Shown one piece after another: positions 1 through 35,053 of a stretch of DNA of 64,000 nt (position 1 is its first letter; every line of letters begins with the position of its first letter). The position numbers and the translations under genes were made by a program. This DNA comes from Mytilus edulis. Taxonomy: Eukaryota. Under the pieces are notes generated by a model. The model searched no databases, was not told the DNA's origin, and saw only the letters and a program-made list of their open reading frames with translations. Location: the NCBI RefSeq assembly GCF_963676685.1, contig NC_092344.1, positions 48,732,001-48,796,000 on the forward strand, read 5' to 3'.

Positions 1-838
1 TGCTTATATTGGTGATTTTGAATCTTTTCAAAGTTTTGATTTTCTACCCTATATACCACATTGCCTCACTTTCTCATTAAGAAAAAAACACACACCTAAT
101 TAAATGGGCATTTAAAAAGTTAGAATGTGAATATATATATTCAAACTCTTTTAGGTCATTTTTAGTAGCAATAAACAAAAGAACTATGTCAATTGGACTA
201 CTTTGAAACTATATCTGCCCTTGATCTTTTACTATTTAACATTTTTGATCGCTTTGGAGATTCCGTATATCGCCAGGTTATCGGAATTCCAATTGGGATT
301 AACTGTGCACCACTTATTGCGGACCTGTTTTTTTGTATTGCTACGAGTTACATTTTATGACCAAAATCAGCAAAGACCCATCGAAACAACATCTGATACA
401 CAAATTTAATAATACTTTTAGATATTTGGATGATATTTTGGCTCTCAATAATGACGACTTCAGTATGTATACTAAAGAAGTTTATCCTGTTGAACTTACC
501 TTGAGAAAAATTTATGAATTACTGAAAAATTATTACACCAGGGTTTTCGATATCACAAACTAGTCAAAACAATTACTAAATTTTATCATCGGTATAAGGA
601 CATCATTCGTAAATATAGCTCAACATGCAGACTTCTTATACGTTCAGGTATTTCACATCCAATATTTTATGGAAATATTCTTTAGAAAGCACAAAAATGT
701 CAGTATTCACCTCAGAAGCTAACAAAACCTTTAAATAGACTTATTTAGAAGGGATATAGTTACGATACTGTTGTCAGGTCATTAAAGATTGCATATTTTG
801 GCGTTGATTCACTTATAGGGTCTTTGCATCGGAACTAA
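1..838 (+). mobile_element. Penelope-like retroelement, RT/thumb region, degenerate (copy 1; 5' part lies outside the window)
   Basis: Frameshifted RT motifs QVIGIPIG.NCAPLIADLF(L)YCYE and FNNTFRYLDDILALNN...KEVYPVEL, then thumb TEKLLHQGFRYHKLVK. Stop TAA at 836-838. Near-identical to 26837-29487. Confidence 0.85.
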
Positions 839-892
839 ACACATTTATTCAAAAACCAGTTATTGGCATGACACGGGTTATGTTCTTCTCAT

Positions 893-953
893 ATATGTTA
901 TGATGGTATGATACTAAACCTCTAACGGGAAGGATCGTGCCTGATATTCATAT
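893..953 (+). promoter_or_regulatory. Putative form-2 SECIS element downstream of the Penelope-like ORF (copy 1)
   Basis: ATGA at 900-903, helix GGTATGATACT (905-915) pairing with AGGATCGTGCC (931-941), unpaired AAA at 916-918, apical mini-stem, TGAT at 942-945, lower helix ATATG/CATAT. Confidence 0.7.
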
Positions 954-999
954 GATGAAATCATAATCTTTCTATCGGTTTAATTGAAGTCTGGAGCTG

Positions 1000-1420
1000 G
1001 CATGTCAGTTAACTGCTAGTAGTCTGTTGTTATTTATGTTTTATTGTCATTTTGTTTATTTTCTTTGGTTACATCTTCTGACATCAGACTCGGACGTCTC
1101 TTGAACTGAATTTTAAATGTGCGTATAGTTATGCGTTTACTTTTCTACATTTGCTAGAGGTATAGGGGGAGGGTTGAGATCTGGCCTTTGTTAGTCTTGT
1201 ATTATTTTAATTTTAGTTTCTTGTGTAAAATTTGGAAATTAGTATGGTGTTCATTATCACTGAACTAGGATATATTTGTTTAGGGTCCAGCTGAGTAACG
1301 CCTCCAGGTGCGGGAATTTCTTGCTACATTGAAGACCTGTTGGTGACCTTCTGCTGTTGTTTTTTCTATGGTCGCGTTGTTGTCTCTTTGACACATTCCA
1401 CATTTCCATTCTCAATTTTA
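1000..1420 (+). repeat. Dispersed repeat, probably the 3' tail of the Penelope-like element
   Basis: The same sequence occurs at about 29650-30125 (+), about 43375-43860 (-) and as a fragment at about 13610-13760. Confidence 0.65.
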
Positions 1421-2701
1421 TGCATACTATTTATTGCTAGTACATGACTTAAATATTTTTTTACTTACATCTGACAAATAAAGTCCCGTAACTCCGGAAC
1501 AACAAGCAAATCGAAAGAATTTTTTTTCGATAGGCTTTTAAATCAAATCATAAGTGACTTTAAGAAATCGTATATTGTTATGTTTATATGTTTTATTCAT
1601 CTTCCAATTTAATTTTAAATTTTAAATTTTTTATATAAAACTTTATTTTAAAGCTAGTGAATTAAATGTTGTTTCTCCTAAAACAAATGTTGTTGGAAGT
1701 ATTCGGCAGCAAGAATAAAACAAATGAAAATATAATTTCTAAATTTTATTCGACCGAGCGTTTTTTTTATAGATTTTCCTTCGTATGCACAAAGCAAACA
1801 ATGCGTGAGCCAAGTATTGAAACACGGGAAGAGTTATAGGGACCGAAAATATTTGCCAAACCACATATAAATTCAATTTTACCTGAATGAGTTGAAACCT
1901 TAGTTTCTTGATAATTTCTATATTTACATTTTAAGTAGTTTAGCAACATTTTCATTATTGAATAAAACTCCCCACTATCTGTGAGCACATCAATACGTTC
2001 AATGAAATGTAAAGAGCTTTATTTATCATGATGCGTCTAAAATTGTGATTACATATATCGGATATGAAATTTATCTTTAATACTATTCTCCTCACAGTTA
2101 AAACACGACTTCTCATGAACGCATTGCCGTTCAGACATGTACCTTCCGGGTTCCAGTTTAAGGAGAAAAAACTTACACGTATAGCGCGCAAGACGAGCAC
2201 TTCTGTGTCATCTCTATTCTTCGAATCAGCATTGAACACCTTGCCCCATGTCGCAGGACAATTTTCCATTGTTTAACGCAACAGACCGGTGTATTAGATT
2301 TTAAGACTGGTACCTTTGATAACTATTCTTTCCCTTCGCCGAAATTTTCATGATTAATGTACATCATCAATAAATTTGTATCCACATCTTAATTGTATAT
2401 AGTTATCAAAGGTACCAGGATTATATATTTCTTGGATAAGTGTTTTTAATACTCGTTGAATTCAACTTTTTTTTGATAGATTAATGTAAATTGATGAACT
2501 GAAGTAATATTCTATCTAGTGTATTTAAAAATTTCATACTATATAATTGAGTAAAAGAGTCGAGCTAATTAAACATTAAAAACATTTACCTTTTACCTCA
2601 CTACTATTTTTGGATTCTGAATCGGTTTCGGTTTCAGTTTTGGTATCGGTTTCGGTTTCGGTATCGGCTTAGGATTTGTTCGTCAGATATGGAAGTATAT
2701 A

Positions 2702-3981
2702 TGTTACAGTGAATTTGTATAATCAGGGATTATGCAGAATCCCTATTTTTTTTAGGGATTATGTAGAATCACTAAAAACATTAGTGATTATATAGATTCC
2801 CTGAAAATGACCAGTGATTTTGTATAATCACTGATAATTTTAATTATTATTCTACACATTCCCTAATATGATTTCAGGGATTATCAATAATTAAAAGCTT
2901 CAAAGATGATATCTCAAACCAATTACACTAGTGGTTCCAGCAAGGATTTGTATAGTCTTACTATACAAATCCTTGGTTCCAGGAAAGGGAGATCCCAAAA
3001 AACTTATGGTCAATATTCACGAAAAGGCTGAAGAAGGTTATCGCCTTGCTATATAGCATGGAATCCTGCTCGGATCTTTATACAAGAAATCAGTTTGAGG
3101 TTGCTGATTTCCCTTCATTGGTACAATTCGTACCTTCAGATGTTTGTGCTGAAAACTCTATAACTCTGAGACGTGTCGTAAAATTTGATTTGATGTTGAG
3201 GACATGGTTTTTTTTTAATTTGATATCGTAGTAAAAACAGACGTGAATTGATAGATATGCCTGTAGAAAATCAGGGTAAATGTGTAATAGTCGATGCCAT
3301 TCAAATTTAATTTGTAAATAAAATGTGTAATATTAAAATATTATACATAACATTAACATTTATCAAAACGACTGAACGCATAAAAATAGTTTTAATGACA
3401 ATTTTATTTAATTTCATATTCTCAACCTAAAAACAATTGCTAAAACAATACGATAAAAAGAATAATCATTATGCAATTTAATATTTTCATACTGACTTCA
3501 TCAACCCGCCCGTGTGGGCTCGCTTGATATTATTAATACTAATACAGTCAGTATCAAAAAGGGCTCGCTTGATATTATTACTGATAAAGTCAGCATTAAA
3601 AACAAAACATCAATTATTCTGTATATATTTTGCTTATCATTTAATTATATAGTGCTTATCATTTAAATAAATTATTTTGTGTATAACATTTCAATATGTT
3701 TGTGTCTTTCATATTAATAAATTATGCCTAACGTTTTACAATATTAAGGTTATTATTATGATATATTAAGGTTAACTTTTAAGATATTTCAATATGTTAT
3801 ATATTTTAGTATCATTTCAGTTATTCTGTATAATCCCTGACGTTTTTTCTAGTGATTATACATAATCCCTGAAAGTTTTAGTGATTATATATATTCCCTA
3901 AACTAACCAGTGATTATACATAATCCCTGAAAATTTTAGGGATTCTACATAATCCCTGATTTATACAAATTCACTGTAACA
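2702..3981. mobile_element. Non-autonomous TIR transposon with TGTTA...TAACA ends (Ginger-like), inserted in a TA run
   Basis: Imperfect TIRs of about 130-150 bp start TGTTACAGTGAATTTGTATAA and contain ~29-bp palindromic subrepeats (AGGGATTATGTAGAATCCCT). TATA flanks both sides. The element is absent at the paralogous site near 31375. Confidence 0.8.
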
Positions 3982-5829
3982 TATATATACTGGACATCAC
4001 TTCGCGGTCATGGCAAAAGTTGCAACTGGTACTTATTTCCTATAAACAATCCTCACGCAGAGAAAAAATAAAATTCTGACTAATTGATCGACAAATTACA
4101 TGACCTGGGTATTTGATTTAAAAATCTTGAGGCTTAGACACTTACAATATTAATTTTGATAATAACCCCATGGACTATTTATTTGTCATGTCCTATATAC
4201 ATATCCGATTACATCTTCATCAAGTTCAATATATAGGTTTTTAATTGGTCATTTTTATATTTTGTTGACAAAAGATTCACAACATTTGATAAAATAAATC
4301 AACCAAAATATACGAAAAAAATCTGTTGAAGATGAAAGGAGAAGAATTCGCTAATTTATATTTTTCCTATGATTTTTTTTATCAAAAAAGTTATTATATG
4401 TAACAACTTACGACGATAAAACGACATGTTATCACGTTAATAGGTGTTCCTTGATAACCTCAAAAGTGGAGGGATCTTCTCTTGAGAGAATCTTTTTGAT
4501 CCTATAGATTAATCGTAGAACATATTCACGTCGTTGTTCATAGTTTGGATTACTTTAAACACTTAAAATGTTAATGTTTCAATTTTTTAATATTTTAATA
4601 ACATAATAGAAATGAAAACAACATATCAGGTAGCTTGGTCACTTTGTAATTTGTTATATACCTAGGTTTGACGATACTTTGTCATTTTTATTGGAAAACA
4701 ATTGTTATTTATAATGTCACGACGAAAAGGGGTACAGTTAGGGGATTGTTTTATCTAAAGTTAAAGATTTTAACTTTCTATAGCTAGCAATTGAATAAGT
4801 GCCATATGAATTTTTCACACTTTACATTTCCACAGCCAATCAATAAATGTAGATCTAAAATTGTAGATTCAGAAAGATTTTTAATATATATTACTGTACG
4901 AGTTTATGAATGGAAAAAAGGAAACTAAACAAACATCTCTCTCTCTCTCTCTCTCACACACACGACATCACCATTGACAATGGGGAAGAGGATCTTACAA
5001 GAAAATGTAAACATTATAAGTTAAATTACAATCGCAGAATAATGTAAACATGAAACAATAGTAAATAAAATATTTCTATTAGGTCAACAGATATTTATCT
5101 GTTGTTAATTTCATTATTATGTTATGTAGAACACATGTTTAATTTACAGTCATATGAAATTATTTTTTTTTTCTTACAAATAATGATGTTTTCGAAGTTG
5201 TTGAACCAATGCATGCACACATATACTTTAAGTAAGTCCTGTATTTGTTTTATCAACAGTAAAAGAACCTTATTTTAGTAATTTATTTTTTTGTGAATCA
5301 TCTTTAATCTTCTGAAATTGATTGGTAAGTGTAATATACAAAAACACAAAAACTAGTTAAACCAAAACCCGATCAGAATCCGTTAATTTTATCAGTAATC
5401 TTAGTACATTTTTCACACTTTCCAACAGCAGTTACACTTTGTTTATAAATATTGACCCTTGAAAAATATGTCACAACTGTAAGTTGTGAATGATAAAAAT
5501 ATGCAAGTGACACACTTGTAACATAAGTGTCTTTTTGACATATAGTCCCGTATTATGAACTTTTGGTATTATTGTCGGAAAGATTAGAACACGAATTGGA
5601 CAACATCTGACATCAATTGAAGTGACCTGGTTATTGCAAATCAGAAATTGTACATACTAACGAGTTTGATTTATTTATCTTTTCTCCATATTATCCCTTA
5701 CTTACTTGATGCGTTTGTCCTCATCCTTCCCAATTATTTTGTTTAGGGATTAGTTGACTAAGAAATTAAATCTTGGTCAGATGATGTAGCTCTATGAAGT
5801 GTGTCAAGAGTTTTGTGGTTAATTAAATG

Positions 5830-5837
5830 TATATAAA
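5830..5837 (+). promoter_or_regulatory. TATA box of the pleiotrophin-domain gene (copy 1)
   Basis: TATATAAA 65 bp upstream of ATG 5895; conserved in copy 2. Confidence 0.6.
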
Positions 5838-5894
5838 GTCGCAATCATAAGTTAAGGTCACTCCAGTTTTCTATTGTCTTTAATAAGCTACAAT

Positions 5895-8800
5895 ATGAAA
5901 AACGGGTTTGTTATTTTTGTCGTTGTCCTGGTAGCTACAGTCGCTGCTAAAAAGGGATGGAAACTCCGACAACGACAACGTAAGTCTAAAGTTTAACAAG
6001 CATTTTATTACTTTTAGTGTAAGCATTAAATTTTCAACTACCTTTACAAGCATTTAAATTAGTTTAACAATTATTCAAAATACTATAACCAGCATTTCTA
6101 TTATTTAATAAGCATTTTATTAGTTTATCAAGAATTTTGAATTAGTTTAACAAGTATTCAAATTACTATAACTAGCATTTTTATAAGTTTAACAAGCATT
6201 TGAATTACCAAAATAGTATATACTACATAGTGCACCAGACGGTCAGTCCAGGGAAATAAGCAAGACTGTCTTTCATAAAAAATTGTAAAATAACTCAAAA
6301 TCAAAAGCAGCTGACCTTGAATATATATAAAATAAAATACTATCAATAAAGAAATTATTCTGATTTGATTTTACAAATGAACAATAAAATAGCACGTTAT
6401 AAATTTGTAGCGTCCGGGGCGCTTTTCAGTATTAACGCTCAAACCAAAGGCTTATAAAACACGAATACACCAGACGCTGTATGACTAAAATGGGGAATAC
6501 AAAACATTGTTTCTTGTATCTTAAGTCAACATTGCTGGAGGGATAGAGGATATGTGTTTCTTAATAGTTTCAAAATTCATTAACTGAAATTCAAGAAAAG
6601 TAGGTTATACATTATGTCAGTACTGAAAAACTTCAATAAGAACTCTTTCGATGCCGAAAAAAGAAGATATGTAGTTAAATGTATGTTATATCCGTTTTTT
6701 GCCTGATATATTAAGATCTTGTTAGAATTATTATAAAGGATAAACATTGAACATATAAATGTGTCAAAATATTAGTAATTGAACAAAATAGGACTTTTGT
6801 TTACTTGAAGTTTTTATATGAAACCTTAAAAATGAATAAAATATCTTTTCAGGATGCAAATATGATAAAAGTGCATGGAGTGACTGTGACACAACAACAA
6901 ATACCGTCAGCCGAGTTTTGACTCTAAAATCCGGCGAGGAAGGATGCCAACAGACACAGAACCAATCTATAACATGTGATAGGTTTGAAAGACTACAAGC
7001 ATGGATAATAAACATGATAAAAAAGACGGAAAAAAGAAGAGAATGGCAAGAACTGAAACAACAAAGAAAAGAACAAAAGCAAGAGATGATAGTCATGAAA
7101 GAGAATAAACAGCTTGTGAAAGAGCAAATTAAAAGTAAGAAAATATATGAGAATGATTGAAAAATATTATCTTACACATAAAATATTGTTATTTACTAAC
7201 ATAATCAGAATTTTGACGATTTTGATGCAGGTTGTGATTGCTAAAACAATCGCTTCCTAATAAATTAAGCTTTAAAATTCATTTCGGTAAGAGTACGTAT
7301 CGTATATATAGACAGACAAATTTAGAATATATTGTAATAATGAGTAATTAAAAATATTTATGTAATTTTTTTCGAGTCATATTATCTTCAGATAACCCAA
7401 TTTCTTCTTAATTGAAGTCAATAAAAAATATGTAACTGTATATCAAACATCATAAGTAGTACTGATTTTATTCTTCTAACTATCACTCTTAAGTTTAAAA
7501 CGATTCTCTGATACTAAGAATATAATTAAACGATTTTTTTAATCAATATAATTATCTAAATCGGTATGTATTAAATAAAACTTCGTTATTCAAAAACATA
7601 CCATCAAACGCTACTTCTATGATCAGTCTAGTCAGTTCTAAATGTGATATATTTTTCTTTAAATTTGGGCAAGGTTTTCCATGATTTTGGGAACAAAATT
7701 TGGGGTAAAAATAGGGGGGACACCGACTTCGTTTTGTCACTACAGCAATCTCAATTTCGTGTTTTATGAAATAATCTCGCCTTTCATTTCGGTAGACCTA
7801 CGTCTCAGAATCTTCTACCTACTGAATAAAAGATAATTTCTTCTTGTCCTGAAAAAAGAATTAAACATTTGCCTCTGGCTGATAAACAAACTACAATTAA
7901 TCATATGGAAATTAAGAGCATAGCATATAAAACATGATTGTTTCCTGTCTACCATACCGTTGTCTATTGTATAAATCAATTCTGTTTGATAAAATGATTT
8001 GTCTCTCTTTGATCAGTATATAGGAAAACAAAAAAGTGGTGCAAAAATATTTCTGATTTTGGATTTTCTGGATTTACATTAATCAGGGATGTTAACTCAA
8101 AACTTAACATTGTGAGAGCGGTGATAAATGAGAAAAATCGGGAACCTTTAAATATCAGTATTTTATTTTTGTAAACGAATGAATGTTTTGTTTGGTTTGC
8201 ATTCGAATTGGTCCATGCATGGAGTCAATAAACGTGATTTTTTCATTTGTAGTATCTTTAATAATATTGCGATCATGTTTTTTTATAAAGGATGTCGTTA
8301 TGAACACAGTGATTGGAGTGAGTGCGATCAAGCAAAAAATACAGTAACCCGAAATTTTACTTTGAGTGAAGGCGAACAGGGTTGTGAACAATCACACACT
8401 ATCACCATAACTTGTGACAAACAAAATAGAATATAGGCATGGAAAGCAAAGAAGAAGGACCGTAAACAGAAAAGAATAGACGAAAAATTGCAAATGAAGC
8501 AAGATAGAAAAGAGAAAAGAAAACTTGCAAAAGAACAAAGACTAAGTATGTATAAATTTTAAATTTAATTTACTACTGTTGTTTATTCGGTATTATCTAT
8601 CTATGATGGTATACAACCAGCTTTTCATCATACAAATAATTAAGGTTAAAATGTACTTGGAAATGTCATATTCGGTCAGGAGCGTACCAGATTAAATTCA
8701 TTTGATAAGCGCATGGAAAGTACACCCTTGTTGTTAGGGGGTTGCCAGTTATACTTGTGTTTTTACATTTGTTGTTTGATTTTTTAACACAAATATATAC

Positions 8801-12226: not shown

Positions 12227-12526
12227 AGGGCTGCGTCAGGTTTAGATAAAAAAAATTATATTGGTATCACTGTATATATTTGTTTTTATACAGATATTTT
12301 TCACGTATTCTTCAGTGATTGCTCAGGGGTTTTTTGGGTTTTTTTTTTTTAATTGAGGCACAAATCATAAAATTTTCAATAAATACTGCGTTTTTATCGT
12401 CATTTTTAAGTTAGACAGGAATCTTTTGACCTTTGATAGTTTATATATCGTATCATCAAGCAATTAAATATCTAATTAAGTGCTGGATTTAACCTTGGTA
12501 CTATTAAGTAGACTTTTTTGGAAAAC

Positions 12527-13600
12527 ATGTTGGCTTTTACTTTTTTAAAACAACATCTTTATTTGCATATGTTTCTTGTCTTCAAGACAACAAAGGAGAT
12601 TGCTCTTCACGAGGGATTAAAATTGTTTCACATGCTTTACCTCGAAATCTTACGTCACTGAACTTAAAACGAAATTCAAAAGGTACAATATCACATGGCG
12701 ATTTCCAATTTTATGGAAGATTGAGAATATCAATTTACGACAAGAACAATATTTCCTTACTGCAATCAAATGCTTTTAAAGGACTTAAACATTTAAAGCA
12801 TCTGTCCATGTCTGACAATATGCTCGATCTTAATACATCATGTGTCTCGGAATTATTCGGACCTCTGAAATCTCTAGATAGGTTTTGCATTTCAAGAAAT
12901 ATGCCAGTAGGAACCGATTTACCAGTTTATTATCTATTTTTCGGATATTTTCTTAAACTTATACATCTAGAAATGGATCTTGCTCGAAAGCCAGTGTGGA
13001 ATAAATGTGGATTGTCAAAACAGTTACGAACTTTATGTTTTAACTCCTGCTTTTTAGATAAAATAACAATTAGACCTTCGTTTTTATGCTACCATCAATA
13101 GAAAATATCTATTTTGTCGGTTGTGAGGTTCGTGAGTTGCCTGAAACTAAACTTTCTGAAACCTTTCATTTGTTGAAGATTCTTCGCTTATTCCAAGTTT
13201 ACATGGGCATTGAGCCAGCACTGAAGATAGTATATCCTTTTAAAAAATGTAATAGTTAAACTTTACAGAAATTAATTCTGGCTATTGTGATGGACTTATT
13301 AGAGCTCCTTTTGCAGTTATAATAAATGCTGATAGGGAAAAATACTTGAGAAAAGTATGTTTAAGAAAAGTAATTTTGATAAGAAATGATTTTGTAGATT
13401 TCAAGCCAAATTCTTTACTGTCTGAATGTTTTGTTACAATATTTTTTTCTGGAGACCGATTTTCAATGACAAATGGATTTAAAACAGTTTAACTGTCAAA
13501 GCTCATACTGTAGTTATCAAGTCTTGTAATTTTCAATTATTCCGGAATTCTTAGTATTTCAACTGACGAAATCAATTCAGGTTTAACGGCCAATACAGAA
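12527..13600 (+). pseudogene. Toll-like receptor pseudogene (N-terminal LRR part only)
   Basis: Colinear with 52749 to about 53855 from the ATG. It carries small deletions, frameshifts and stops. Homology ends near 13600, so LRRCT, TM and TIR are missing. Confidence 0.9.
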
Positions 13601-13988
13601 TTTTCACGGAACTAGTACGCCTTTTTATTTAGGGGTCAGCTGATATACACGTCCGCGTGCGTGGTTTTTTCGCTGCGTTAAAGACCCATTTGTGGCATTC
13701 AGCTGCTCATTTGTCTGGTTTATTTCTCTTTGACGTATTCCCTATTTTCATTCTCAATTTTACTATAATCTTTACATCAAGACCATCATGTATTTTTTGT
13801 GAAGCTGATATGGAATATTAATGAACAAGGTCTTGGTATTTTCCGATGATTTTTTTAGGAAAAGGACGATGCTCTCTTTGACATAACCCTGGTTAATTAC
13901 TTTTATGCTCAGACAATGGTAAAGTGTCATATAATATGAGTAGCAGCTGCAAGGTAAATTAGAGTGGAAAAGGGAGAGACATTTATCA

Positions 13989-15425
13989 GTGACTATTTTT
14001 ACAGACGCATCCACCTTTAAATGGGGTGGTGGCTTCGAAATTAATGACATCAAACATACTGTAGGTGATTCGTGGGTGGCAGAAATGCTTTCTCTGCCAA
14101 TTATGATTCTAGAAGCGTATGCGTTATTAAATGTTTTAAAGTCATTCAGAGACAAAATACAGGGGTTTCGAATAGATGCAAATGTCGACAACAAAGCTTT
14201 GATTTATGCGTGGGACAACGAGGGGTCAAGGTCATCTCAGTTGAATTCCGTAATAAAAGATATTTTCAAATTTACTATTGATTCGGACATTATTTTGAAC
14301 CTGTACTATATACCGTCAAAACAAAACCTCGCTGACGCGCCTTCACGTACTTTAACAAAGTGTGACGCAACAATTACGAAAGTTATATGGCAGACTATTC
14401 AAGAGCATTTCGGAGGAAATTCTGGACATACTTTAGATCTCATGGCTCTGGACTCAAATAGCATGAAAGACAAAAAAGGAAATATTCTAAAACATTTTAC
14501 ACCTTTTCAATCTCCTCTGTCCTCGGGTATAAACGTTTTCACTCAAGAGATTAACAAACAGGAAAACTGTTACGTATTTCCACCTTTCAATCTTGTTCTA
14601 CCAGTTATGACTTTTTTGAAAGAAAACAGTTGTAGTTACACGATTGTGATAAGAGCGGAGAACACTACGCCTTTATGGCTGCCTAATTTTGTCAATTTCA
14701 TAAGTGACGCATTTGTTCTAGGCATCAAAGGTCAAAAAGATGTTTTAAAGTACCCGACGAAAAAGGGCTATGTGTCTGATAGATATGGTTTACCATGGAA
14801 TTTATGGGCGGTAAGGGTGCAGAATTTTATTTCCGGTTCATCTTATGGAAAAATGCTTTTTCTAAATAACCCTACGATTGCTTCCAATTTTCATTTTTTG
14901 TGTGTCGGTGATTCAATGATCAGATTTTTTTTATCAGATAAGAAATTTAGGAACCCTATGGTACATGTTTACTCAGAAGGTGGAGGCCTTATTCGTAATG
15001 TACAGTACAATATTCAAAAGATGGTGGATAGGTATCCACCACAAACCATTTTTGTGCATGCTGGTGTGAATAATTTGAGTAAATGTTATTTGTATTTGAA
15101 TGAATTTCACCAATTATCTGTAGCACATCATGAGCTTGAATCTTTAACATTGTTGTTAGAAAACATTTGTAAGCAATTTACGCATGTAAAAGTAATAATG
15201 TCATCAATAATTATCACTAAGGACGATTACATTAATATAAGATCGGAGAGTTTAAATGCAACAATGAAACAATCATGCATAGAACATAAGTGGTTATTCA
15301 TGGACAATGTAAATATTAACAGTTCACATTTGAGGGATAATGTGCATTTGAATGAGGATGGCCAGCGTATATTGACAAACAATGTATATAGTATGTTAAA
15401 ATGTGTATCCCATGTAGGAATTTAG
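13989..15425 (+). CDS. C-terminal part of the DIRS-type pol: RNase H, adenine-methyltransferase-like domain, SGNH/GDSL hydrolase
   Basis: RNase H motifs IFTDAS, ILEAYA, VDNKA and YIPSKQNLADAPSR. Methyltransferase-like LDLMALDSN...CYVFPPF. SGNH blocks VGDSMI, GG, HAGVNN and DNVHLN. The start is not a true initiation site. Confidence 0.85.
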   Translation: MTIFTDASTFKWGGGFEINDIKHTVGDSWVAEMLSLPIMILEAYALLNVLKSFRDKIQGFRIDANVDNKALIYAWDNEGSRSSQLNSVIKDIFKFTIDSDIILNLYYIPSKQNLADAPSRTLTKCDATITKVIWQTIQEHFGGNSGHTLDLMALDSNSMKDKKGNILKHFTPFQSPLSSGINVFTQEINKQENCYVFPPFNLVLPVMTFLKENSCSYTIVIRAENTTPLWLPNFVNFISDAFVLGIKGQKDVLKYPTKKGYVSDRYGLPWNLWAVRVQNFISGSSYGKMLFLNNPTIASNFHFLCVGDSMIRFFLSDKKFRNPMVHVYSEGGGLIRNVQYNIQKMVDRYPPQTIFVHAGVNNLSKCYLYLNEFHQLSVAHHELESLTLLLENICKQFTHVKVIMSSIIITKDDYINIRSESLNATMKQSCIEHKWLFMDNVNINSSHLRDNVHLNEDGQRILTNNVYSMLKCVSHVGI

Positions 15426-15579
15426 GGGCAGTATCATGACTAGCGTTTGTTTATGTTTCTCTGTAAAAGTGTAAATATGAGTGTTTAGTTAACATTTTTG
15501 TTAATTTGTATAGTTGTAAAAAACATTTTCTTTTATTTTGTTGTAGGTTTTTAATATTGCTAATATTTTACGTCCATAC

Positions 15580-16890
15580 ATGTTATGCAAAGGATGTGCA
15601 ACAGCAAATGATGTAGACTATATTTTTTGTAAAATATGTGGTTCTCCGAGAAATAAGTCATTAGAATGTTTAGACGAATGTTCCAATGAAAGGGATCAAC
15701 TATTGCATAAAATTGAAAAACGAATTGACACACTTGACAATTTATTAAAATCGGGGAGTTATTCAAAACAGAAATGCAGTTTAAAAACCGAATTAGAGAA
15801 ATTTTTTGTTACTTTGGAACCTCTGAAAAATCTTTCTAATGCCGGTCCTGAAGACATCAGGAAATTTTTAGTATTCAAAGAAAAAAATGGCAGAACACAA
15901 CTGCACGAAGATAATTGTGTATATCGTACAGAACATGGTCTTAAAAATTGCAGTTGTCCAAAATCTCTCACAGTAAAATCGGTAGACAGTTTGTTAGGTA
16001 AAATAAGAGCAATTTTTCGAGATATTGGAAGAGCTGGCGAATGGAATCCAATGCTTTACAGTGGCAACCCGGCTTCATCTCACATCTTGAAGCAGCATAT
16101 TCAAGCAGTGTCTTTGGAGCAATCTAATTCTAATATAACAAGAAAACAAGCGACTCCTTTAATGTTCGACAAGTTAGGAAAACTATGTAGATATTTATCC
16201 TATAAAGTGTCTGTGGAAAAAGACCCTATATCACAGTTTTTATTTGCGCGTGACTTGTCTTATTTTTCTATGTTATGTCATTCAGGCAACAGGGGCGGAG
16301 ATCTTGGTTTACTTAAGGCTGAAAATTTGTTTGACATACCTGATTCAAAAGGTATTTATGTATCACAACAGGCAGGAAAAACGGCCTCAATCGACAATCC
16401 AAAAAATTATATTATCTTGCCGTCGCTAGATGAAGACATTTGTCCAATTAAACTCGTAAAGGATTACAAACGTATAGCAAGTAAAATAGATATTGATTTA
16501 AACAAGGGTTTCATTTATCGTGTTAGAGACAACAAGTCAAAACAAATTAACAATCGAGCAGTATCATCATCATGTATGACAGACCGGTTAAAGACGCATT
16601 TAATGAATATTAATTTATATCAAGGAGAAACGTCCCACAGCATCAGACGCGGTTGCGCAATTACCTTAAGAATGTTAGGAGTCGATGATCAAGCGATCAA
16701 TCAACATGTGGGCTGGAGTTCCAAGGGAATGATTGACCATTATGCACATGTTGGAAAATTAATGAGCCCCGAAGGTCCAGCAAGCACATTGTCCTCCGCT
16801 GCAAAACATTTGGGACAGGGGTCGTCTTTGTTCGATAAAGTTTCACAAAACTATGTCAGTATAAGTAATTTGAAACAGTTTAAATTTTGA
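15580..16890 (+). CDS. Tyrosine recombinase of the retrotransposon, with an N-terminal Zn ribbon
   Basis: 436-aa ORF with catalytic set NRGGDL (R), K, HSIRRG (H-x-x-R), HVGW and HY (Y). N-terminal CKGC...CKIC. Confidence 0.9.
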   Translation: MLCKGCATANDVDYIFCKICGSPRNKSLECLDECSNERDQLLHKIEKRIDTLDNLLKSGSYSKQKCSLKTELEKFFVTLEPLKNLSNAGPEDIRKFLVFKEKNGRTQLHEDNCVYRTEHGLKNCSCPKSLTVKSVDSLLGKIRAIFRDIGRAGEWNPMLYSGNPASSHILKQHIQAVSLEQSNSNITRKQATPLMFDKLGKLCRYLSYKVSVEKDPISQFLFARDLSYFSMLCHSGNRGGDLGLLKAENLFDIPDSKGIYVSQQAGKTASIDNPKNYIILPSLDEDICPIKLVKDYKRIASKIDIDLNKGFIYRVRDNKSKQINNRAVSSSCMTDRLKTHLMNINLYQGETSHSIRRGCAITLRMLGVDDQAINQHVGWSSKGMIDHYAHVGKLMSPEGPASTLSSAAKHLGQGSSLFDKVSQNYVSISNLKQFKF

Positions 16891-24172: not shown

Positions 24173-24635
24173 GGTGTAATACCACCAAATCATGGTACGT
24201 CACATCCGGTTGCATACGAAAGTAGGACTAAAAAAATATTCCCTTGAATTTGACAGTTGTAGAAAATTAACCCTGCATTTCAATGCACTTAAATTTTTCT
24301 GAGTCGTAAATATGTATGTTGGGTGTCTGAAAGCATCATTCTTTTTTTATTTGATGGTCTTATAAAATATTTTGGAACGTTAAGGTTACATAGTTACCAA
24401 AGCAGGTAACCAGTAAATAACAGTGTAAAAATTGGGTTGTCTACCCTCGGCGGTGGTTACTTTCTTATATGCAATGAAATGTAGTGTGAATTTTTCACTG
24501 TATCACTGGAAAGGATTGAACTTTACACATGCAAAGTATTTCTTTTGTTGAAATAAAGGTAAATACTGTACGATTTTTTTAAAAGTGCCAATTTAACAAA
24601 GACTAATAGGGAAAAATCAATGGTGGTATTACACC
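24173..24635. mobile_element. Non-autonomous TTAA-target TIR element (Kolobok-like)
   Basis: Perfect 15-bp TIR GGTGTAATACCACCA. TTAA at 24169-24172 and 24636-24639. It interrupts the GIY-YIG region. Confidence 0.8.
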
Positions 24636-25650
24636 TTAAGAAACAACACAATCATCCTATTAAATATTTAAAAGTTCAACCTTTGGGAGTAGTAAATAAG
24701 CAACTCATTCGAAGTTTGTACGATCACGGAAAATAATTGAATTAAATTGGATTAAAAAAATACAGACAGTCTACCCTCTCGGTCTTAGTGATAATATCAT
24801 GGAAATTGGCAATATATCAAGAACCGATTCTGTTAACATTTTGGATATATTTTCAAAAACTGTTCGAAAAAACCGTTCTCATGGTCGTAGACCAAATCGC
24901 AAATCAAAGAAAATGACGGACCAATCAAATCAATATTTCGGACCTAATTTCTATTTAAAAAAACAACGGCAGACATTTTCTGTTAACAAAGCTCTGTTCA
25001 TTACCGATTAAGAAGTTAAATAAAATTTTAGAGGATTGCAACACAATTTCATATAGCAGTCCTAAGTATGAAATCGTTCAAATTATAATTGCGTATTGTT
25101 ATGCTAAATTGTTTCCAAAAATTGATCATAAAAAACATTTTATTAAAATAAAGTGTGTCGATAAAGCTTAAGGTTTTGATTTTGTAAATAATGCCGGTAT
25201 TTCAGCGACCATCCCGTTAAAGAACAAATTCCTGGATATTTTGATAATACCGAGCTCCCTCTTAAATGTTATATTTACAAGAAATCTACCCGGAAATTTG
25301 TGTTTAATTATAGCCAATTGTGTAAAGATGTTAATATCAAAATACACCCACATCATGCAATTGCAGTAATTCCGAATACATGTATGAACCCATTTCACAT
25401 GTGATAACAGGAGATCTTAACATCGTTCAAGACTGAGAGTTAAAATCATTTCTCAGTAAAGGACCTAAATACCGCCCCCCCCCCCCCCCCGTCAATTATT
25501 GATTGGAATGATTGTCGTAATATCATCCACGACTCACTCCATATTTACTGTTTGAAATGGATAAAACGGGAAAAAGCTGACAAAAAATCTTTTGACTCGA
25601 TTTTTTAATTCAGTAATGAACATAGTTGATATACGTATTCAACATTTTAA

Positions 25651-26334
25651 AGGGGCACTAGATGCGAGATATATAAAAAATCTAAAGTTTGATTTTTTTC
25701 TGTTCAATCAATAATGAAAGTGAAATATTGAAATAACAATTCGCTTTTTGCAGCCAAAAAGGTTCAATTTTGTCAAATTACGCTAAGAAACATTGATAAT
25801 TAGTAATTCACTTGCAAGTGAATGAGTCGACCTTTTTAAAGTCGTATTCATGTGAACTTCAATTTAACCCCTAGCTAGAGATTGACAACGCATGCATTGT
25901 ACGTGTACTGGTTATTTAGAGAAAAGGAATGTCAACAACGAAAGTGAAATTACGGTAAATCATTTGATTACTAATTCGATGCACATAAAATCATTCTTAT
26001 ACGGTTAAAAACAATGAGAAACATCTATTGTTAATCTATAAAATAAAATCAAACAGACCTATAAAAATTCAATTGCACGTGTTGGTTTAATCTATTCATA
26101 TCTTTATTTATGTTTACATCGCTTATATGGTCATCTGAGGTCAAATCGATAGTTAATTAGATGGCGTCTGGACTAAAATACACACGAAACGAACCTATAT
26201 ATTATCTACCCCATGCTCTGTAAATTGTTTATTTTAGACTTTCGATAGTTTGAATAAATGTTTTACATTGTTATAAATCAAATATGAGAATTTGAGTCAA
26301 ATCGGTGACCATGAATTTGACAGCTAGTGCCCCT
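25651..26334. mobile_element. Non-autonomous TTAA-target TIR element (Kolobok-like)
   Basis: TIR AGGGGCACTAG(A/C)TG. TTAA at 25647-25650 and 26335-26338. The Penelope-like reading frame resumes on either side. Confidence 0.8.
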
Positions 26335-27318
26335 TTAAAGAACATTGTACTCTTAACAATAACCACAATAAACCTATTTCGCATATCAAACATAAATTAA
26401 AAGAACTAGCCAAGGAATTTGTTTTTGTCCCGGACGATAAAGCTGCTTATAATATTATAAATGATTGACGTAAATTTTACATTAAGGTTCTACAAAAAGA
26501 AGTCACCAATTCACAAATATTCCAACTGACTCCATTTTCAGAAAACGACACCTGTAACAAACATAAACTTTTAGCTACCGCTTTACAAGCAGAACCAAAA
26601 ACAATGAAAGTCCCAACTATGTGTTGGCTTCCGTAGCTACACAAAACACCATACAAATATAGATTTATTTCGTCTTCAAGCCATTGTTCCAATACTAAAT
26701 TATCTATTCCTCTTGCCAGTACACTTGGTACAATCAAAAACCTGATAATGAATTGTTCAAATGAGGCCTTCGAAAATAGTGGAATTAATTACTTTTGGAG
26801 TGTCAAAAACTCGTTGAAAGTACTTGACAAACTGCATGCTTATATTGGTGATTTTGAATCTTTTCAAAGTTTTGATTTTCTACCCTATATACCATATTGC
26901 CTCACATTCTCATTAAGAAAAAAACACACACCTAATTAAATGGGCATTTAAAAAGTTAGAATGTGAATATATATGTTCAAACTCTTTTAGGTCATTTTTA
27001 GTAGCAATAAACAAAAAAACTATGTCAATTGGACTACTTTGAAACTATATCTGCCCTTGATTTTTTTGTTCGCTTTGGAGATTCCGTATATCGCCAGGTT
27101 ATCGGAATTCCAATTGGGATTGACTGTGCACCACTTATTGCGGACCTGATTTTTGTATTGCTACGAGTTACATTTTATGACAAAAATCAGCAAAGATCCA
27201 TCGAAACAACATCTGATACACAAATTTAATAATACTTTTAGATATTTGGATGATATTTTGGATCTCAATAATGACGACTTCAGTATGTATACTAAAGAAA
27301 TTTATCCTGTTGAACTTA

Positions 27319-28949
27319 GGCCGTGTTCACACCAAACGCCGTGTAGAGTAAACATGTTTACAATTAGTTTAGTGAAGTGTGCACTGGTTTCACATTACAT
27401 TTGTTCACATCTATACACATTGTTTAGCTACCTGTACATAAGATTTGTTCTCACTTGTAAACTATGTGTCATTTAAATGTTCATTACGTAGAACTGAATT
27501 CAAAATTTTGGGACAATTTTTCTAGCGGTAAGGGAACAACCATTTGACTTCAAAAGGGGGGGTGGGGTGGGAATGGAAATATTCCGATCCCCAATTTGAT
27601 AAAAAAAAAAATGATCATACAGATCATAAAAGAAATATTCTGAATCAAAGAGTTTCCCCATACATTGTAGTGTTAAATATTGAAAAAAAATGTATTTGAT
27701 CACCAGCATCGAAAAAAAGGAATAAAAACGTACGCGCGAAAAAAAATCTTACTCAGATAAAAAAAAATAACCCTCCCCCTTTTTAAGTTAAGTGGTTACT
27801 ACTTTATGAAAGCCATTTTTATAATTTGCAGTAGTTTGAATATACTAGAGATGTCTCGATTACGCACTAGAAAACGTTAGCTGCAGCAGCGTGCTTACAG
27901 CCGAAAAAAAGGATTGAGTTATTAGGGATCTCTAAATTTTTATCTTTTCTGTTTGTTTCAAATGGTGTTTCTTCTCCAAGGAGTATTTGGTAAAAGAACA
28001 GGGTCACGTTTTTTTAAAATTTATTTTAAGGGTTATTTAACGGATTTGAGATACTAGACAAACATATCATTTACCCCACACTGTTTTTAGTCATGCATTT
28101 ATGCGTGAATCGTTGTTTGAGTAAAGACCAGTGGCAAATATTTCTATGTACGTCAAGTCGATTCGGGAAGACCTTTTCAAATGAATTAGGCAGCAACTAT
28201 TTACTTCATTTTTTAGGGAGGGAAAAGGGGGGGTAGAGGGGCGTGGGCTATTGATTTTTCCAGGACAAATTTTGGTGACAAGTCGAAATCAATTTTAGCA
28301 TTATATTTATATAGTGGCAGCTGAGGGTGAAACAAACAAATTTTTTTTCAGGGCCAAAAACTGGAAACATTTTTTGTTTCCAAAACAAAATCCATAGCTC
28401 ACCCCCCACCCCCTTGCCTTTATGTTTTATACTTAACTATAATAGCCCCACCCCCATGCCTTTATGTTTTATACTCAACTATAATAGCCCCCCTCCCCCA
28501 TGCCTTTATGTTTTATACTCAACTATAATAGCCCCCCCCCCCCCCGAAAATCAATTGGTTCCTGCCTTATGGGTTCGGCAATGATGCTGCTTTGAGTCTT
28601 GATCAGGGGTTAATAAAGTACGTGAATTTGTTTTTAACAAAAAAAAATCTGTAAAATTTAGACAACAATTTCTGTAAAGAACTATACTAATAATTATCAA
28701 AAATATCAATTTTACTCAAAAATAGTTTCCTCCTTAAATATATACACGGTAAAACTAATGTCCTAAATGCCTAGTTTTGTGTACACTTAACCTACACAAG
28801 GCCTACATTGACTATCGACTGTGTGTAGATAAAACATGATTTAAACTACATGTAAACATTGAGTTTTATCAATGGGAACGCAATTGTGTTTCGTTTACGT
28901 GTGAGTTACACTAACACAACACCGAATTTAGGTCAATGTGAACACGGCC
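27319..28949. mobile_element. Non-autonomous PIF/Harbinger-like element inserted in the RT
   Basis: 13-bp TIR GGCCGTGTTCACA. 3-bp TSD TTA at 27316-27318 and 28950-28952. It splits YPVEL|TLNKAN. Confidence 0.85.
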
Positions 28950-29541
28950 TTACTTTGAATAAAGCTAATACTAACAATGACCACTGCGCTTTCCTCGATC
29001 TTGATATCTATATCATTAACGGAAAGCTTAATACTAAAATTTACGATAAAAGAGATGATTTCTCAATTCCTTAGGTTAATTATCTATTTTTTTATGGTGA
29101 CATTCCCTTGTACGATTCGCTCGTGTATGTAACAATGTTTTAGATTTTAATGAGAGAAATTTATGTATTACTGAAAAATTATTACACCAGGGTTTTCGAT
29201 ATCACACACTAGTCAAAACAATTACTAAATTTTATCATCGGTATAAGGACATCATTCGTAAATATAGCTCAACATGCAGACTTCTTATACGTTCAGGTAT
29301 TTCACATCCAATATTTTATGGAAATATTCTTTAGAAAGCACAAAAATGTCAGTATTCACCTCAGAAGCTAACAAAACCTTTAAATAGACTTATTTAGAAG
29401 GGATATAGTTACGATACTGTTGTCAGGTCATTAAAGATTGCATATTTTGGCGTTGATTCACTTGTAGGGTCTTTGCATCGGAACTAAAAACATTTATTCA
29501 AAAACCAGTTATTGGCATGACACGGGTTATGTTCTTCTCAT

Positions 29542-29602
29542 ATAAGTTATGATGGCATAATACTAAATCTCTAACGGGAAGGATTGTGCCTGATGTTCAT
29601 AT
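29542..29602 (+). promoter_or_regulatory. Putative form-2 SECIS element (copy 2)
   Basis: ATGA at 29549-29552, helix GGCATAATACT pairing with AGGATTGTGCC, AAA at 29565-29567, TGAT at 29591-29594. The helix differences from copy 1 preserve pairing. Confidence 0.7.
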
Positions 29603-32350
29603 GATGAAATCATAATCTTTCAATCGGTTTAATTGAAGTCTGGAGCTGGCATGTCAGTTAACTGCTAGTAGTCTGTTGCTATTTATGTATTATTGTCATT
29701 TTGTTTATTTTCTTTGGTAACATCTTGGTGACATCAGACTCGGACGTCTCTTGAACTGAATTTTAAATGTGCGTATAGTTATGCGTTTACTTTTCTACAT
29801 TTGCTAGAGGTATAGGGAGAGGGTTGAGATCTCACAAACATGTTACCCCGCCGCATTTTTGCGCCTGTCCCCAGTCAGGAGCTTCTGGCCTTTGTTAGTC
29901 TTGTATTATTCTAATTCTAGTTTCTTGTGTACAATTTGGAAATTAGTATGGTGTTCATTATCACTGAACTAGTATATATTTGTTTAGGGGCCAGCTGAGT
30001 AACGCCTCCGGGTGCGGGAATTTCTTGCTACATTGAAGACCTGTTGGTGAGCTTCTGCTGTTGTTTTTTCTATGGTCGGATTGTTGTCTCTTTGACACAT
30101 TCCCCATTTCCATCCTCAATTTTATACATACTATTGCTAGTACATGACTTAAATATTTTTTACTTACATCTGACAAATAAAGTCCCGTAACTCCGGAACA
30201 ACAAGCAAATCGAAAGAATTATTTTTCGATAGGCTTTTAAATCGATTCATAAGTGACTTTAAGAAATCGTATATTGTTATGTTTATATGTTTTATTCATC
30301 TTCCAATTTAATTTTCAATTTTCAATTTTGTATATAAAACTTTATTTTAAAGCTAATGAATTAAATGCTGTTTCTCCTAAAACAAATGTTGTTGGAAGTA
30401 CTCGGCAGCAAGAAGAAAACAAATGGAAATTTTATTCGACCGAGCGTTTTTTTATAGATTTTCCTTCGTATGCACAAAGCAAACAATATTTGAGCCAAGT
30501 ATTGAAACACGGGAAGAGTTATAGGGACCGAAAATATTTGCCAAACCACATATAAATTCAATTTTACCTGAATGAGTTGAAACCTTAGTTTCTTGATAAT
30601 TTCTATAATTACATTTTAAGTAGTTTAGCAACATTTTCATTATTGAATAAAACTCCTCACTATCTGTGAGCACATCAATACGTTCAATGAAATGTAAAGA
30701 GCTGTATTTATCATGATGCGTCTAAAATTGTGTTTACATATATCGGACATGAAATTTATCTTTTATACTATTCTCCTCACAGTTAAAACATGACTTCTCA
30801 TGAACGCATTGCCGTTCAGACATGTACCTTCCGGGTTACATTTTAAGGAGAAAAAACCTACACGTATAGCGCTCAAGACGAGCACTTCTATGTCATCTCT
30901 ATTCTTCGAATCAGCATTTAACACCTTACCCCATGTCGCAGGACAATTTTCCATTGTTTAACGCAACAGACCGGTGTATTAAATTTTAAGACTGTTACCT
31001 TTGATAACTATTCTTTCCATTCGCCGAAATTTTCATGATTAATGTACATCATCAATAAATTTGTATCCACATCTTAATTGTATATAGTTACCAGGATTAT
31101 ATATTTCTTGGATAAGTGTTTTTAATACTCGTTGAATTCAACTTTTTTTTGATAGACTAATGTAAATTGATGAACTGAAGTAATATTCTATCTAGTGTAT
31201 TTAAAAATTTCATACAATATAATTGAGTAAAAGAGTCGAGCTAATTAGACATTAAAAACATTTACCTTTTACCTCACTACTATTTTTGGATTCTGAATCG
31301 GTTCCGGTTTCAGTTTTGGTATCGGTTTTGGTTTCAGTATTGGCTGAGGATTTGTTTGTCAGATATGGAAGTATATATATATACTGGACATTACTTCGCA
31401 AATTTTCGGAGTTATCTCCTGTAAAAAATCCTCACGCAGAGAAAAAATAAAATTCTGACTAATTGATCGACAAATTACATACATGAACTGGGTAATATGT
31501 GATTAACAAATATTGAGGCTAAGACACTTATAATCTTAATTTTGATAATGAGCCTATGGACTGCTTATTTGTCATGTCCTATATACATATCCGATCACAT
31601 CTTCCGTTGTCTTCATTAAGTTCAATATATAGGTTTTTAACTGGTCATTGTTATATTTTGTTGACAAAAGATTCACAACATTTGATACAATAAATCAACC
31701 AAAATATACTAAAAAAATCTGTTGAAGATAAAAGGAGAAGAATTCGCTAATTTATATTTATCCCATGATTTTTTTTTATCAAAAATATTATTATATGTAA
31801 CAACTTACGACGATTAAACGACATGTTATCACGTGAATACATGTTCCTATATAACCTCAAAAGTGGAGGGATCTTCTCTTGAGAGAATCTTTTTGATCCT
31901 ATAGATTAATCGTAGAACATATTTCACGTCGTTGTTTATAGTTTGGATTGCTTTGAACACTTAAAATGTTAATGTTTCAATTTTTTAATATTTTAATAAC
32001 ACTATAGAAATGAAAACAACATATCAGGTATCTTGGTCACTTTTTAATTTGTTATATACGTAGGTTTGATGATACTTTGTCATTTTTATTGGAAAACAAT
32101 TGTTATTTATAATGCCATGACGAAAAGGGGTACAGTTAGGGGATTGTTTTATCTAAAGTTAAAGATTTCAACTCTCTATATCTAGCAGGCATCATGTAGT
32201 CTCTTAAATAAATTATTTTTGGGGAAAAAAAATAATATATCTATATTTTAATTGCTAATATCTAGAGAGTTGAATAAATGCTATATGAATTTTTCACACA
32301 GTCAATAAATAAATGTAGATGTAAAATTGTAGATTCAGAAAGTTTACAAA

Positions 32351-32352
<2 letters not shown>

Positions 32353-32399
<47 letters not shown>
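32353..32399. repeat. (TC)n microsatellite
   Basis: Pure TC run; a shorter paralogous run lies at about 4935-4955. Confidence 0.9.
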
Positions 32400-32402
<3 letters not shown>

Positions 32403-33261
32403 AAAAGGGAAGAAAATCTTACAAGAAAATGTAAACATTATAAGTAAATTTACAATCGCAGAATAATGTAAACATGAAACAATGGTAGATAAAATATTTC
32501 TTTTAGGTCAACAGATATTTATCTGTTGTTAATTTCATTATGTTGTTATGTAGAACACATGTTTAATTAACATTCATATGGAATTATCATTTTTTTTTCT
32601 TACAAATAATGATGTATTCGAAGTTGTTGTACCAATCATGCATATATATATACTTTAAGTTAGTCCTGTGTTTTTCTATCAACAGTAAATGAACCTTATT
32701 TTAGTAATTTATTTTTTGGTGAATCCTCTTGAATCTTCTGAAATTGATTGGTAAGTGTTATATACATAAACACAAAAACTAGTTAAATCAACACCCGATT
32801 AGCATCCGTTAATTTTATCAGAAATCTTAGTACATTTTTCACACCTTCCTACAGTAGTTACACTTTGTTTATAAATATTGACCCTTGAAAAATATGTCAC
32901 ATATGTAATACCTGTAAGTTGTGAATCATAAAAATATGCAAGTGACACACTTGTAACATAAGTGTCTTTTTGACATATAGTCCCATATTATGAACTTTTG
33001 ATATTATTGTCGGAAAGATTAGATCACGAAATGGACAACATCTGACATCAATTGAAGTGACGTGGTTATTGCTAATCAGAAATTGTACATACTAATGAGT
33101 TTGATTTATTTATCTTTTCTTTATAATAACCCCTTACTTGATGCGTTTTTCCTCATCCTTCCCAAATATTTTGTTTAGGGATTAGTTGACTAAGAAATTA
33201 AATCTTGGTCAGATGATGTAGCTCCATGAAGTGTGTCAAGAGTTTTGTGGTTACTAATATG

Positions 33262-33269
33262 TATATAAA
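33262..33269 (+). promoter_or_regulatory. TATA box of the pleiotrophin-domain gene (copy 2)
   Basis: TATATAAA 65 bp upstream of ATG 33327. Confidence 0.6.
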
Positions 33270-33326
33270 GTCGCAAACATAAGCTAAGGTCACCTCAGTT
33301 TTCTTTTGTCTTTAATAAGCTACAAT

Positions 33327-33411
33327 ATGAAAAACGTGTTTGTTATTTTTGTCGTCGTCCTGGTAGCTACAGCCGCTGCTAAAAAGGGATGGAAACTCCG
33401 ACAGCGACAAC
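33327..33411 (+). CDS. Pleiotrophin/midkine-like four-domain secreted protein, copy 2, exon 1 (signal peptide)
   Basis: MKNVFVIFVVVLVATAAAKKGWKLRQRQ followed by a phase-1 GTAAGT donor. Confidence 0.8.
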
Positions 33412-34279
33412 GTAAGTCTAAAGTTTAACAAGCATTTTATTACTTTGAGTGTAAGCATTAAATTTTCAACTACTTTTACAAGCATTTAAATTAGTTTAAC
33501 AACTATTCAAATTATTATAACTAGCATTTCTATTATTTAATAAGCATTTTTATTAGTTTATCAAGGATTTCAATTAGTTTAACAAGTATTCAAATTACTA
33601 TAACTAGCATTTTTATAAGTTTAACAAGCATTTTAATTACCAAAATTACTACATAGTGCACCAGATGGTCAGTCCAGGGAAATAAGCAAGACTGTCTTTC
33701 ATAAAAAATTGTAAAATAACTCAAAATCAAAAGCAGCTGACCTTGAAAATATATAAAATAAAATACTATCAATAAAGAAAATATTCTGATTTGATTTTAC
33801 AAATGAACAATAAAATAGCACGTTATAAATTTGTAGCGTCCGGGGCGCTTTTCAGTTTTAACGCTCAAACCAAAGGCTTATAAAACACGAATACACCAGA
33901 CGCTGTATGACTAAAATGGGGAATACAAAACATTGTTTCTTGTATCTTAAGTCAACATTGCTGGAGGGATTGAGGATATGTGTTTCTTAATAGTTTCGAA
34001 ATTATTCATTAACGGAAAATTCCAGAAAAGTAGGTTATATATTATGTCAGTACTGAAAAACTCCAATAAGAACTCTTTCGATGCCGAAAAAAGAAAATAT
34101 GTAGTTAAATGTATGTTATATCCGTTTTTTGCCTGATATATTAAGATCTTGTTAGAATTATTATAAAGGATAAACATTGAACATATAATGTGTCAAAATA
34201 TTAGTAATTGAACAAAATAGGACTTGTTTACTTAAAGTTTTTATTTGAAACCTTGAAAATGAATAAACCAACTTTTCAG

Positions 34280-34543
34280 AATGCAAATATGATAAAAGTG
34301 CATGGAGTGACTGTGACACGAAAACAAATACCGTCAGCCGAGTTCTGACTCTAAAATCCGGCAAGGAAGGATGCCAACAGACACAGAACCAAACCATAAC
34401 ATGTGATAGGTTTGAAAGACTACAAGCATGGAAAATAAAAAAGGCGGAAAATAGAAGAGAATTGCAGGAAAAGAAACATCAAAGAAAAGAACGACAACAA
34501 GAGATGAAAGAGAATAAACAGCTTGTGAAAGAGCAACTTAAAA
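34280..34543 (+). CDS. Pleiotrophin/midkine-like protein, copy 2, exon 2 (domain 1 plus basic tail)
   Basis: TTTTCAG acceptor, CKYDKSAWSDCDTKTNTVSRVLTLKSGKEGCQQTQNQTITC, GTAAGA donor; 264 nt. Confidence 0.85.
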
Positions 34544-35053
34544 GTAAGAAAATATATGAGAATGATTGAAAAATATTGTCTTACACATAAAATATTGTTA
34601 TTTACTAATATAATCAGAATTTTTGTCGATTTTGATGCAGGTTGTGATTGCTTAAACAATCGCTTCCTAATAAATTAAGCTTTAAAATTCATTTCGGTAA
34701 GAGTACCGTCCGTGTACATTTACGCCAAACATTTTTCATTTTAAAATGAAAAATAAATTTTCAAATTGCTCTTCAAATCTTAAAGGTAGTTGGTTTGAAA
34801 AATGTAACAAAAACCTATAGAAATCACTTTCGAAAAACCATTTTCTCTATGAGATTTGAAATTTGTTATTTTCATGAAATTATATTTTTGATTTAACGAA
34901 GATATTGAAACAAATAACAATAACTTTCTGTTAAAAATGATTTTATTTTGTCAAAAGTTTAAAATTATTAAAACATTTATATTTGCTTGCTTTAGAAAAC
35001 AAAACATATTTCAATCTCATTCTTAAAAGCAAATATTGAAAATACTGACCTTT

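Follow-up and report, generated by a model that had tools for sequence, protein, structure and literature searches.

A SECIS hairpin in the tail of a broken mussel Naiad, from a transposon family that probably reads four UGA codons as selenocysteine

We analyzed a 64,000-nt stretch of the Mytilus edulis genome (contig NC_092344.1, positions 48,732,001 to 48,796,000 of the forward strand; hereafter the window), in which an earlier note had pointed out a hairpin directly downstream of a retroelement reading frame. The hairpin is real: its sequence and fold are those of a SECIS, covariance-model matches to it lie a little under the gathering score, and it sits at the tail end of a defective mussel Naiad. 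We are highly confident that this SECIS is of type II and belongs to the 3' UTR of a dead, truncated member of a high-copy Naiad family, and that intact elements of the family likely read four UGA codons as selenocysteine (Sec). The features of the window on which the analysis rests are collected in Table 1.

Table 1. Naiad-related features of the window
Feature	Position	Strand	Basis or remark
Broken 3' part of Naiad RT ORF, copy 1	1..838	+	Frameshifts, stops
Naiad copy 1 3' UTR, including SECIS	839..1421	+	blastn to intact contig L131
Type II SECIS hairpin, copy 1	890..954	+	Rfam SECIS_1, fold z, cross-family pair counts
Naiad copy 2	24631..30125	+	5'-truncated, frameshifted; stop 29485-29487
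In-frame TGA eight codons past DKA motif (codon 522 of intact ORF), putative Sec site	26466..26468	+	
1.6-kb insertion splitting copy 2 RT	27319..28948	.	Terminal inverted repeats and flanking TTA
Second unit of segmental duplication, matches 1-7296	26837..34706	+	Self-blastn
Type II SECIS hairpin, copy 2 (same insertion, duplicated)	29539..29603	+	Rfam SECIS_1 30.6 bits

The hairpin and its two copies in the window

In copy 1, the RUGAN/NGAN non-Watson-Crick quartet is present at 900-904 and 942-945, with A900-UGA-U904 opposite U942-GA-U945. Helix II occupies 11 positions (905-915/931-941) and is followed directly by an unpaired AAA (916-918) and then by an apical mini-stem of 3-4 bp (920-922/927-929) closing UAAC; helix I spans about 892-897/949-954. 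The earlier note had listed these parts in both copies and assigned them to the form-2 SECIS consensus. The assignment holds, as do ATGA-T, AAA, the mini-stem and T-GA-T, while the "11-bp helix" is in fact 10 pairs plus one A·G mismatch (913/933). The core begins 62 nt past the TAA stop at 836-838, in agreement with the distance of about 60 nt first given, and copy 2 is alike.

The proposed covariance-model check gave matches of Rfam SECIS_1 (full model, gathering score 35) to both copies, at 31.6 bits (E 0.026) for copy 1 and 30.6 bits (E 0.049) for copy 2; the best relative, L149, scored 38.8 bits and is the sole locus above the gathering score. Fold z-scores were -2.5 for copy 1 and -2.2 for copy 2. 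At E<=1 the window holds 14 Rfam matches, including both SECIS, and 11 of the other 12 fall inside palindromic repeat arrays. These arrays (54-nt period; 35031-35267 and 45492-45832, in inverted orientation) are the source of spurious miRNA matches.

The two hairpins trace to one insertion. The duplication match of 1-7296 to 26837-34706 takes in the flanks of the Naiad insertion, and copy 1 extends upstream past the window start into L043, where its pieces align to 24660-26836 and share the mutations found there near DKA. Since one insertion was duplicated together with its flanks, the two SECIS copies are non-independent. Both copies are dead, each being frameshifted and truncated at the 5' end. 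Copy 1 has a deletion of about 230 nt at 502/503; copy 2 is interrupted at about 25653-26333 and 27319-28948, and its truncation removes all three endonuclease TGA sites. The SECIS of both would likely be inert passengers. The second interruption of copy 2 is a non-coding insertion with short terminal inverted repeats, which we take to be PIF/Harbinger-like. A third 3'-end fragment of the main Naiad family (43384-43859, -) starts downstream of the SECIS and hence carries none.

The letter changes between the two helices had been read as preserving pairing. The changes exist: pair 910/936 is G-C in copy 1 and A-U in copy 2 (29559/29585), and U907 of copy 1 is C29556 in copy 2. As covariation, however, they fail. 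Across the 85 genomic copies that span the SECIS, the cited pair is G·U in 78, G-C in 3, A-U in 3 and G·A in 1, so each window copy made one transition from the family G·U, copy 1 at the U and copy 2 at the G. A G·U becomes Watson-Crick through a transition on either side, and the G-C/A-U contrast amounts to two such single changes. Elsewhere, T896 of copy 1 is A29545 in copy 2, a substitution absent from the earlier note that disrupts pairing in helix I. We reject covariation between the two window copies on the grounds of the segmental duplication, the family G·U and this helix I-breaking change.

The window also contains a duplicated immune-gene block made up of Toll-like receptor and B-box genes. 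The Toll-like receptor pair lies at 12508-13101 and 52728-55253 (+), the second being an intact 841-codon LRR-TIR frame and the first being cut at about 13600 by an insertion. Directly after the broken receptor stand two long ORFs (13944-16890, +), one GDSL-like and the other with ALOG and tyrosine recombinase matches, a combination typical of a DIRS/Crypton-like element. The duplicated B-box (TRIM-like) genes (21281-22399 and 60682-61803, -) are 78% alike, and the first has a weak NHL match.

A neighboring host gene might have co-opted the SECIS at this locus, given that the copy was kept through the duplication of the immune-gene block with its core intact in both copies. However, over 11 kb separates the copy from the Toll-like receptor genes downstream of it, the B-box genes point away on the opposite strand, and copy 2 carries the helix I-breaking change. 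Hardly any RNA reads fall in the unique sequence flanking copy 2 (three runs, about 6% of each). Co-option at the window locus has no support, and we consider it hardly credible.

The Naiad family, its TGA codons and its copies

An intact ORF of 1002 codons was found in two metagenome contigs, L131 and L132, which are 99% and 94% identical to the RT query and may be collapsed from many copies. TGA alone interrupts this frame, at codons 55, 86, 97 and 522, and the four TGA stand at conserved-cysteine sites: Zn-finger Cys2, CCHH Cys1, the Cys before GIY-YIG, and the eighth codon past DKA (DKA+8). In genomic alignments, drawn from 65 sequences, TGA occupies the four sites in 11/12, 14/14, 14/14 and 42/42 cases; control codons in the same alignments are TGG for Trp and TGY for Cys, save for single-copy mutations. 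When the endonuclease region was compared with the genome, 135 of the best 150 matches contained three TGA, neither more nor fewer, and were free of other stops; not one of the 150 was devoid of TGA. Between L131 and L132, dN/dS is 0.11 from UGA1 to UGA4 and 0.12 past UGA4; the values against L134, with which all four TGA are shared, are 0.17 and 0.055. By these ratios, purifying selection is shown to act downstream of the TGA codons, which appear to behave as sense codons.

Alternatively, the family could be non-autonomous, with TGA as fixed nonsense, copies moved in trans by Cys-type Naiads, and the hairpin a relic. The genome does contain plenty of Cys-only Naiads whose frames stay open for 1000-1053 codons, and no fully intact Sec copy was present among the 20 long loci examined. 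Against this, each of the four stops is a TGA at a Cys site, the four recur in a family of only 63% identity, covariation of the SECIS extends across families, and dN/dS of about 0.1 behind the TGAs already largely refutes the idea. We regard it as very unlikely, and read the four TGA as probable sense codons.

The motifs of the ORF, read by eye, comprise CX4UX2C, a GIY-YIG region, a KR-rich block, CxC, GPKY, DKA and RT motifs. This is the Naiad layout of an N-terminal GIY-YIG, CX2-5CxxC and CCHH-type motifs and a C-terminal RT in a single ORF of about 1000 aa, and the KR-rich block, CxC, GxKY and DKA are seen both in L131 and in genomic copies. A PDB sequence search of the ORF gave no useful match. 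A Pfam search of the ORF gave no GIY-YIG or RT family match, so domain identity rests on the motifs and on the accessible parts of PMC8557442. No hammerhead ribozyme was found in the window (E<=1) or in L131 and L132 (E<=10). Copies show Naiad-like 5' truncation and partial tandems (pLTR): 5' ends are staggered, and 3' fragments stand before long copies in L090, L096 and L086. At the level of sequence, these observations support the assignment of the hairpin to a Naiad Penelope-like element with in-frame TGA at conserved cysteines.

We counted SECIS cores as exact patterns over the 1.37-Gb genome, with reversed patterns as controls. The 5'-arm pattern gave 5,045 exact matches and the whole core pattern 3,814, the latter a lower bound on intact cores; both reversed controls gave 0. 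The proposal that a transposon has spread SECIS elements through the genome is thus upheld, with at least 3,814 intact cores counted. The main family splits into two subfamilies by SECIS sequence, and its young copies are about 98-99% alike. Within the genome, 2 of 1020 core letters vary in 85 copies, which is weak evidence, since these copies were picked by similarity and mix the two subfamilies. A second Sec family (L134 type), with five TGA, is present in the genome with 209 exact SECIS cores; its copies L211-L222 are very homogeneous, with a SECIS 144 nt past the stop that Rfam missed. Five tRNA-Sec genes score above the Rfam cut-off in the genome, four clustered at C7:74.8-75.4 Mb and the other at C1:49.15 Mb. 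The mussel genome gave no match to the clam-like family L149, and for L133 the main family was the sole match (76-78%); we saw nothing to indicate recent horizontal transfer.

RNA reads (about 6% of each of three RNA-seq runs) cover the whole element, including the whole ORF, on both strands. Depth per strand rises from about 4-70 in the initial 600 nt of the ORF to 180-370 in the bin that contains the SECIS, and many reads at the element run into varied flanks. Truncated copies embedded in other transcripts may therefore account for much of the RNA that carries the SECIS, although strandedness was unverified and the libraries may be biased towards 3' ends.

In selenocysteine recoding, the GA/GA quartet is the binding site of SBP2, which in turn brings in eEFSec and Sec-tRNA. 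In intact elements, host SBP2/eEFSec would recode all four UGAs via the one 3' SECIS. Three of these UGAs would fall on putative zinc-binding or adjacent endonuclease cysteines, and the fourth would precede the RT; were recoding to fail at any of the first three, the product would be a peptide of fewer than 100 residues, and at the fourth it would be an endonuclease that lacks the RT. Retrotransposition would accordingly depend on selenium supply. The SECIS lies about 0.6 kb from the 3' end of the element, and given this position and the 5' truncation, far more SECIS than full elements would be inserted.

Relatives, covariation and turnover of Sec sites

We collected 80 metagenome loci as relatives and scanned 60 of them with Rfam. 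The DKA+8 codon is TGA in 20 of the 80, TGY in 39 and not found in 21. SECIS_1 matches 12 of 23 Sec-clade loci versus 0 of 37 others, the 37 being taken whatever their 3' coverage. Three of the 11 Sec-clade loci lacking an Rfam match are without 3' sequence, and L144 has an insertion in the hairpin stem. An anchor-based search found hairpins in the further loci L134, L138, L139 and L154; the one it found in L136 is poorly paired, and L135, L144 and L153 yielded no hairpin. L153 has TGA at DKA+8, yet no hairpin in the 200 nt searched past its stop; L136 has its poorly paired SECIS (2194-2236) though TGA at CxC is kept.

Covariation was counted in a MAFFT alignment of 13 divergent families. Cells are paired in 88.7% of cases, versus 66% when shuffled, a control that ignores relatedness, and 43-56% when slid, a control that does not. 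In helix II, 10 of 11 pairs change on both sides and 90% of cells are paired; in the mini-stem the figures are 2 of 4 pairs and 84.6%. The UGA and GA are invariant across the 13 families. When arms were swapped, self pairing was 9.2/10 and cross-family pairing 6.2, with at least 8 in 45/156 swaps, a measure biased towards pairing by the choice of the best-pairing 3' arm. Judged from these alignments, there is real covariation across divergent families, which can validly take the place of the between-copy changes.

These data also bear on the possibility that leaky read-through, independent of the SECIS, inserts Cys or Trp at UGA, the hairpin serving reverse transcription or RNA stability instead. 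Retroelements often use read-through; Naiads, without hammerheads, may need another 3' structure; and some outside relatives, 6 of 120 proteins, have Trp at DKA+8 (the protein search for relatives covered 264-840 aa). However, a chain of four leaky events would yield hardly any full-length protein, the letters that never vary coincide with the SECIS quartet and the apical A, and none of the 37 scanned relatives outside the Sec clade matches SECIS_1. We therefore prefer selenocysteine recoding and consider leaky read-through improbable.

We built a quick, midpoint-rooted tree from 72 of the 80 metagenome loci, without the published clam or spider sequences. A single clade (SH-aLRT 100) takes in all 17 TGA-labeled rows, and nested within it are two Cys rows, L133 and L136. 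The nested rows have TGA at the first CxC cysteine instead, a position that is also TGA in L134, L139, L140, L141 and L143 and is absent from the Sec sites given in the accessible parts of PMC8557442. From the midpoint-rooted tree we infer a turnover of Sec sites, with the SECIS retained in most cases; the paper's separate spider origin lies outside the scope of this tree. Clam-like loci, including L149, fall in one clade with the main mussel family (SH-aLRT 100), and the mussel and clam-like Sec loci appear to form one broad selenocysteine clade.

A wider scenario, which we consider doubtful as a whole, would make Sec Naiads one old, widespread clade with SECIS outlasting Sec sites and with selenium-gated transposition. 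The roughly 4,000 orphan intact SECIS of the mussel, many of them in host transcripts, would already have made some host genes selenoproteins or would compete for SBP2.

Comparison with known Naiads and SECIS elements

Selenoprotein Naiads have been published for the clams Mercenaria (Naiad_Mmer) and Sinonovacula (Naiad_Scon) and for spiders (Naiad_Sdum, Naiad_Smim) (PMC8557442), as the earlier note had stated for Naiad-clade Penelope-like elements in general. In the accessible parts of that paper, clam Sec is placed at CCHH Cys1, the Cys before GIY-YIG and DKA+8, spider Sec also in the first Zn finger; all four SECIS are called type I, and whether transposons supply SECIS to host genes is left open. 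A single genome with no fewer than 3,814 intact cores makes such supply directly searchable. Since the mussel genome combines Cys-only Naiads with two or more young Sec families, it permits a like-for-like test of the role of selenocysteine in a transposon. Because UGA looks like a stop, selenoprotein transposons get missed.

Against the accessible parts of the same paper, three of the four mussel Sec sites are clam sites and the fourth is a spider site. Naiad_Mmer and Naiad_Scon share with the main mussel family an N-terminal GIY-YIG, a C-terminal RT, three UGA sites and a SECIS in the 3' UTR, and the stop context of L149 closely matches the Mmer line of Fig. S3B. Unlike them, the mussel family adds a UGA at Zn-finger Cys2, has a helix I that starts about 52 nt past the stop and not 1-21, and has a hairpin with an apical mini-stem (type II, where the paper classes its four as type I); its protein identity to the clam-like loci is about 46-48%. 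The spider elements resemble the mussel family in their UGA before GIY-YIG and at DKA+8, and Naiad_Sdum also in Zn-finger Cys2; they differ in that Zn-finger Cys1 is recoded and CCHH Cys1 is not, and they are without the insertion-in-fingers domain.

Naiad_Mgal and Naiad_Mcor come from the same genus and have the same domain order as the main mussel family, but in the accessible text they have Cys at all sites and no SECIS is reported. L241, from this genome, matches the printed N-terminus of Naiad_Mgal nearly letter for letter when compared by eye, so the published mussel Naiad is a different, Cys family that is also in this genome. L163, our proxy for the Naiad_Mgal/Mcor lineage, is 38% identical to L131 and lies outside the Sec clade.

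The mussel hairpin is like other eukaryotic SECIS (Rfam RF00031) in its AUGA/GA quartet, helix II of 10-11 bp, apical AAA and 3' UTR location, and unlike them in being transposon-borne, present in thousands of copies and just below the gathering cut-off. In the searchable literature, subscription papers and repeat databases being outside the search, the selenoprotein transposons are the four families of PMC8557442, none of them mussel, as far as its accessible parts go. What our analysis adds are the mussel Sec families, their type II hairpin, a candidate Sec site at CxC, and one broad Sec clade with apparent turnover of sites.
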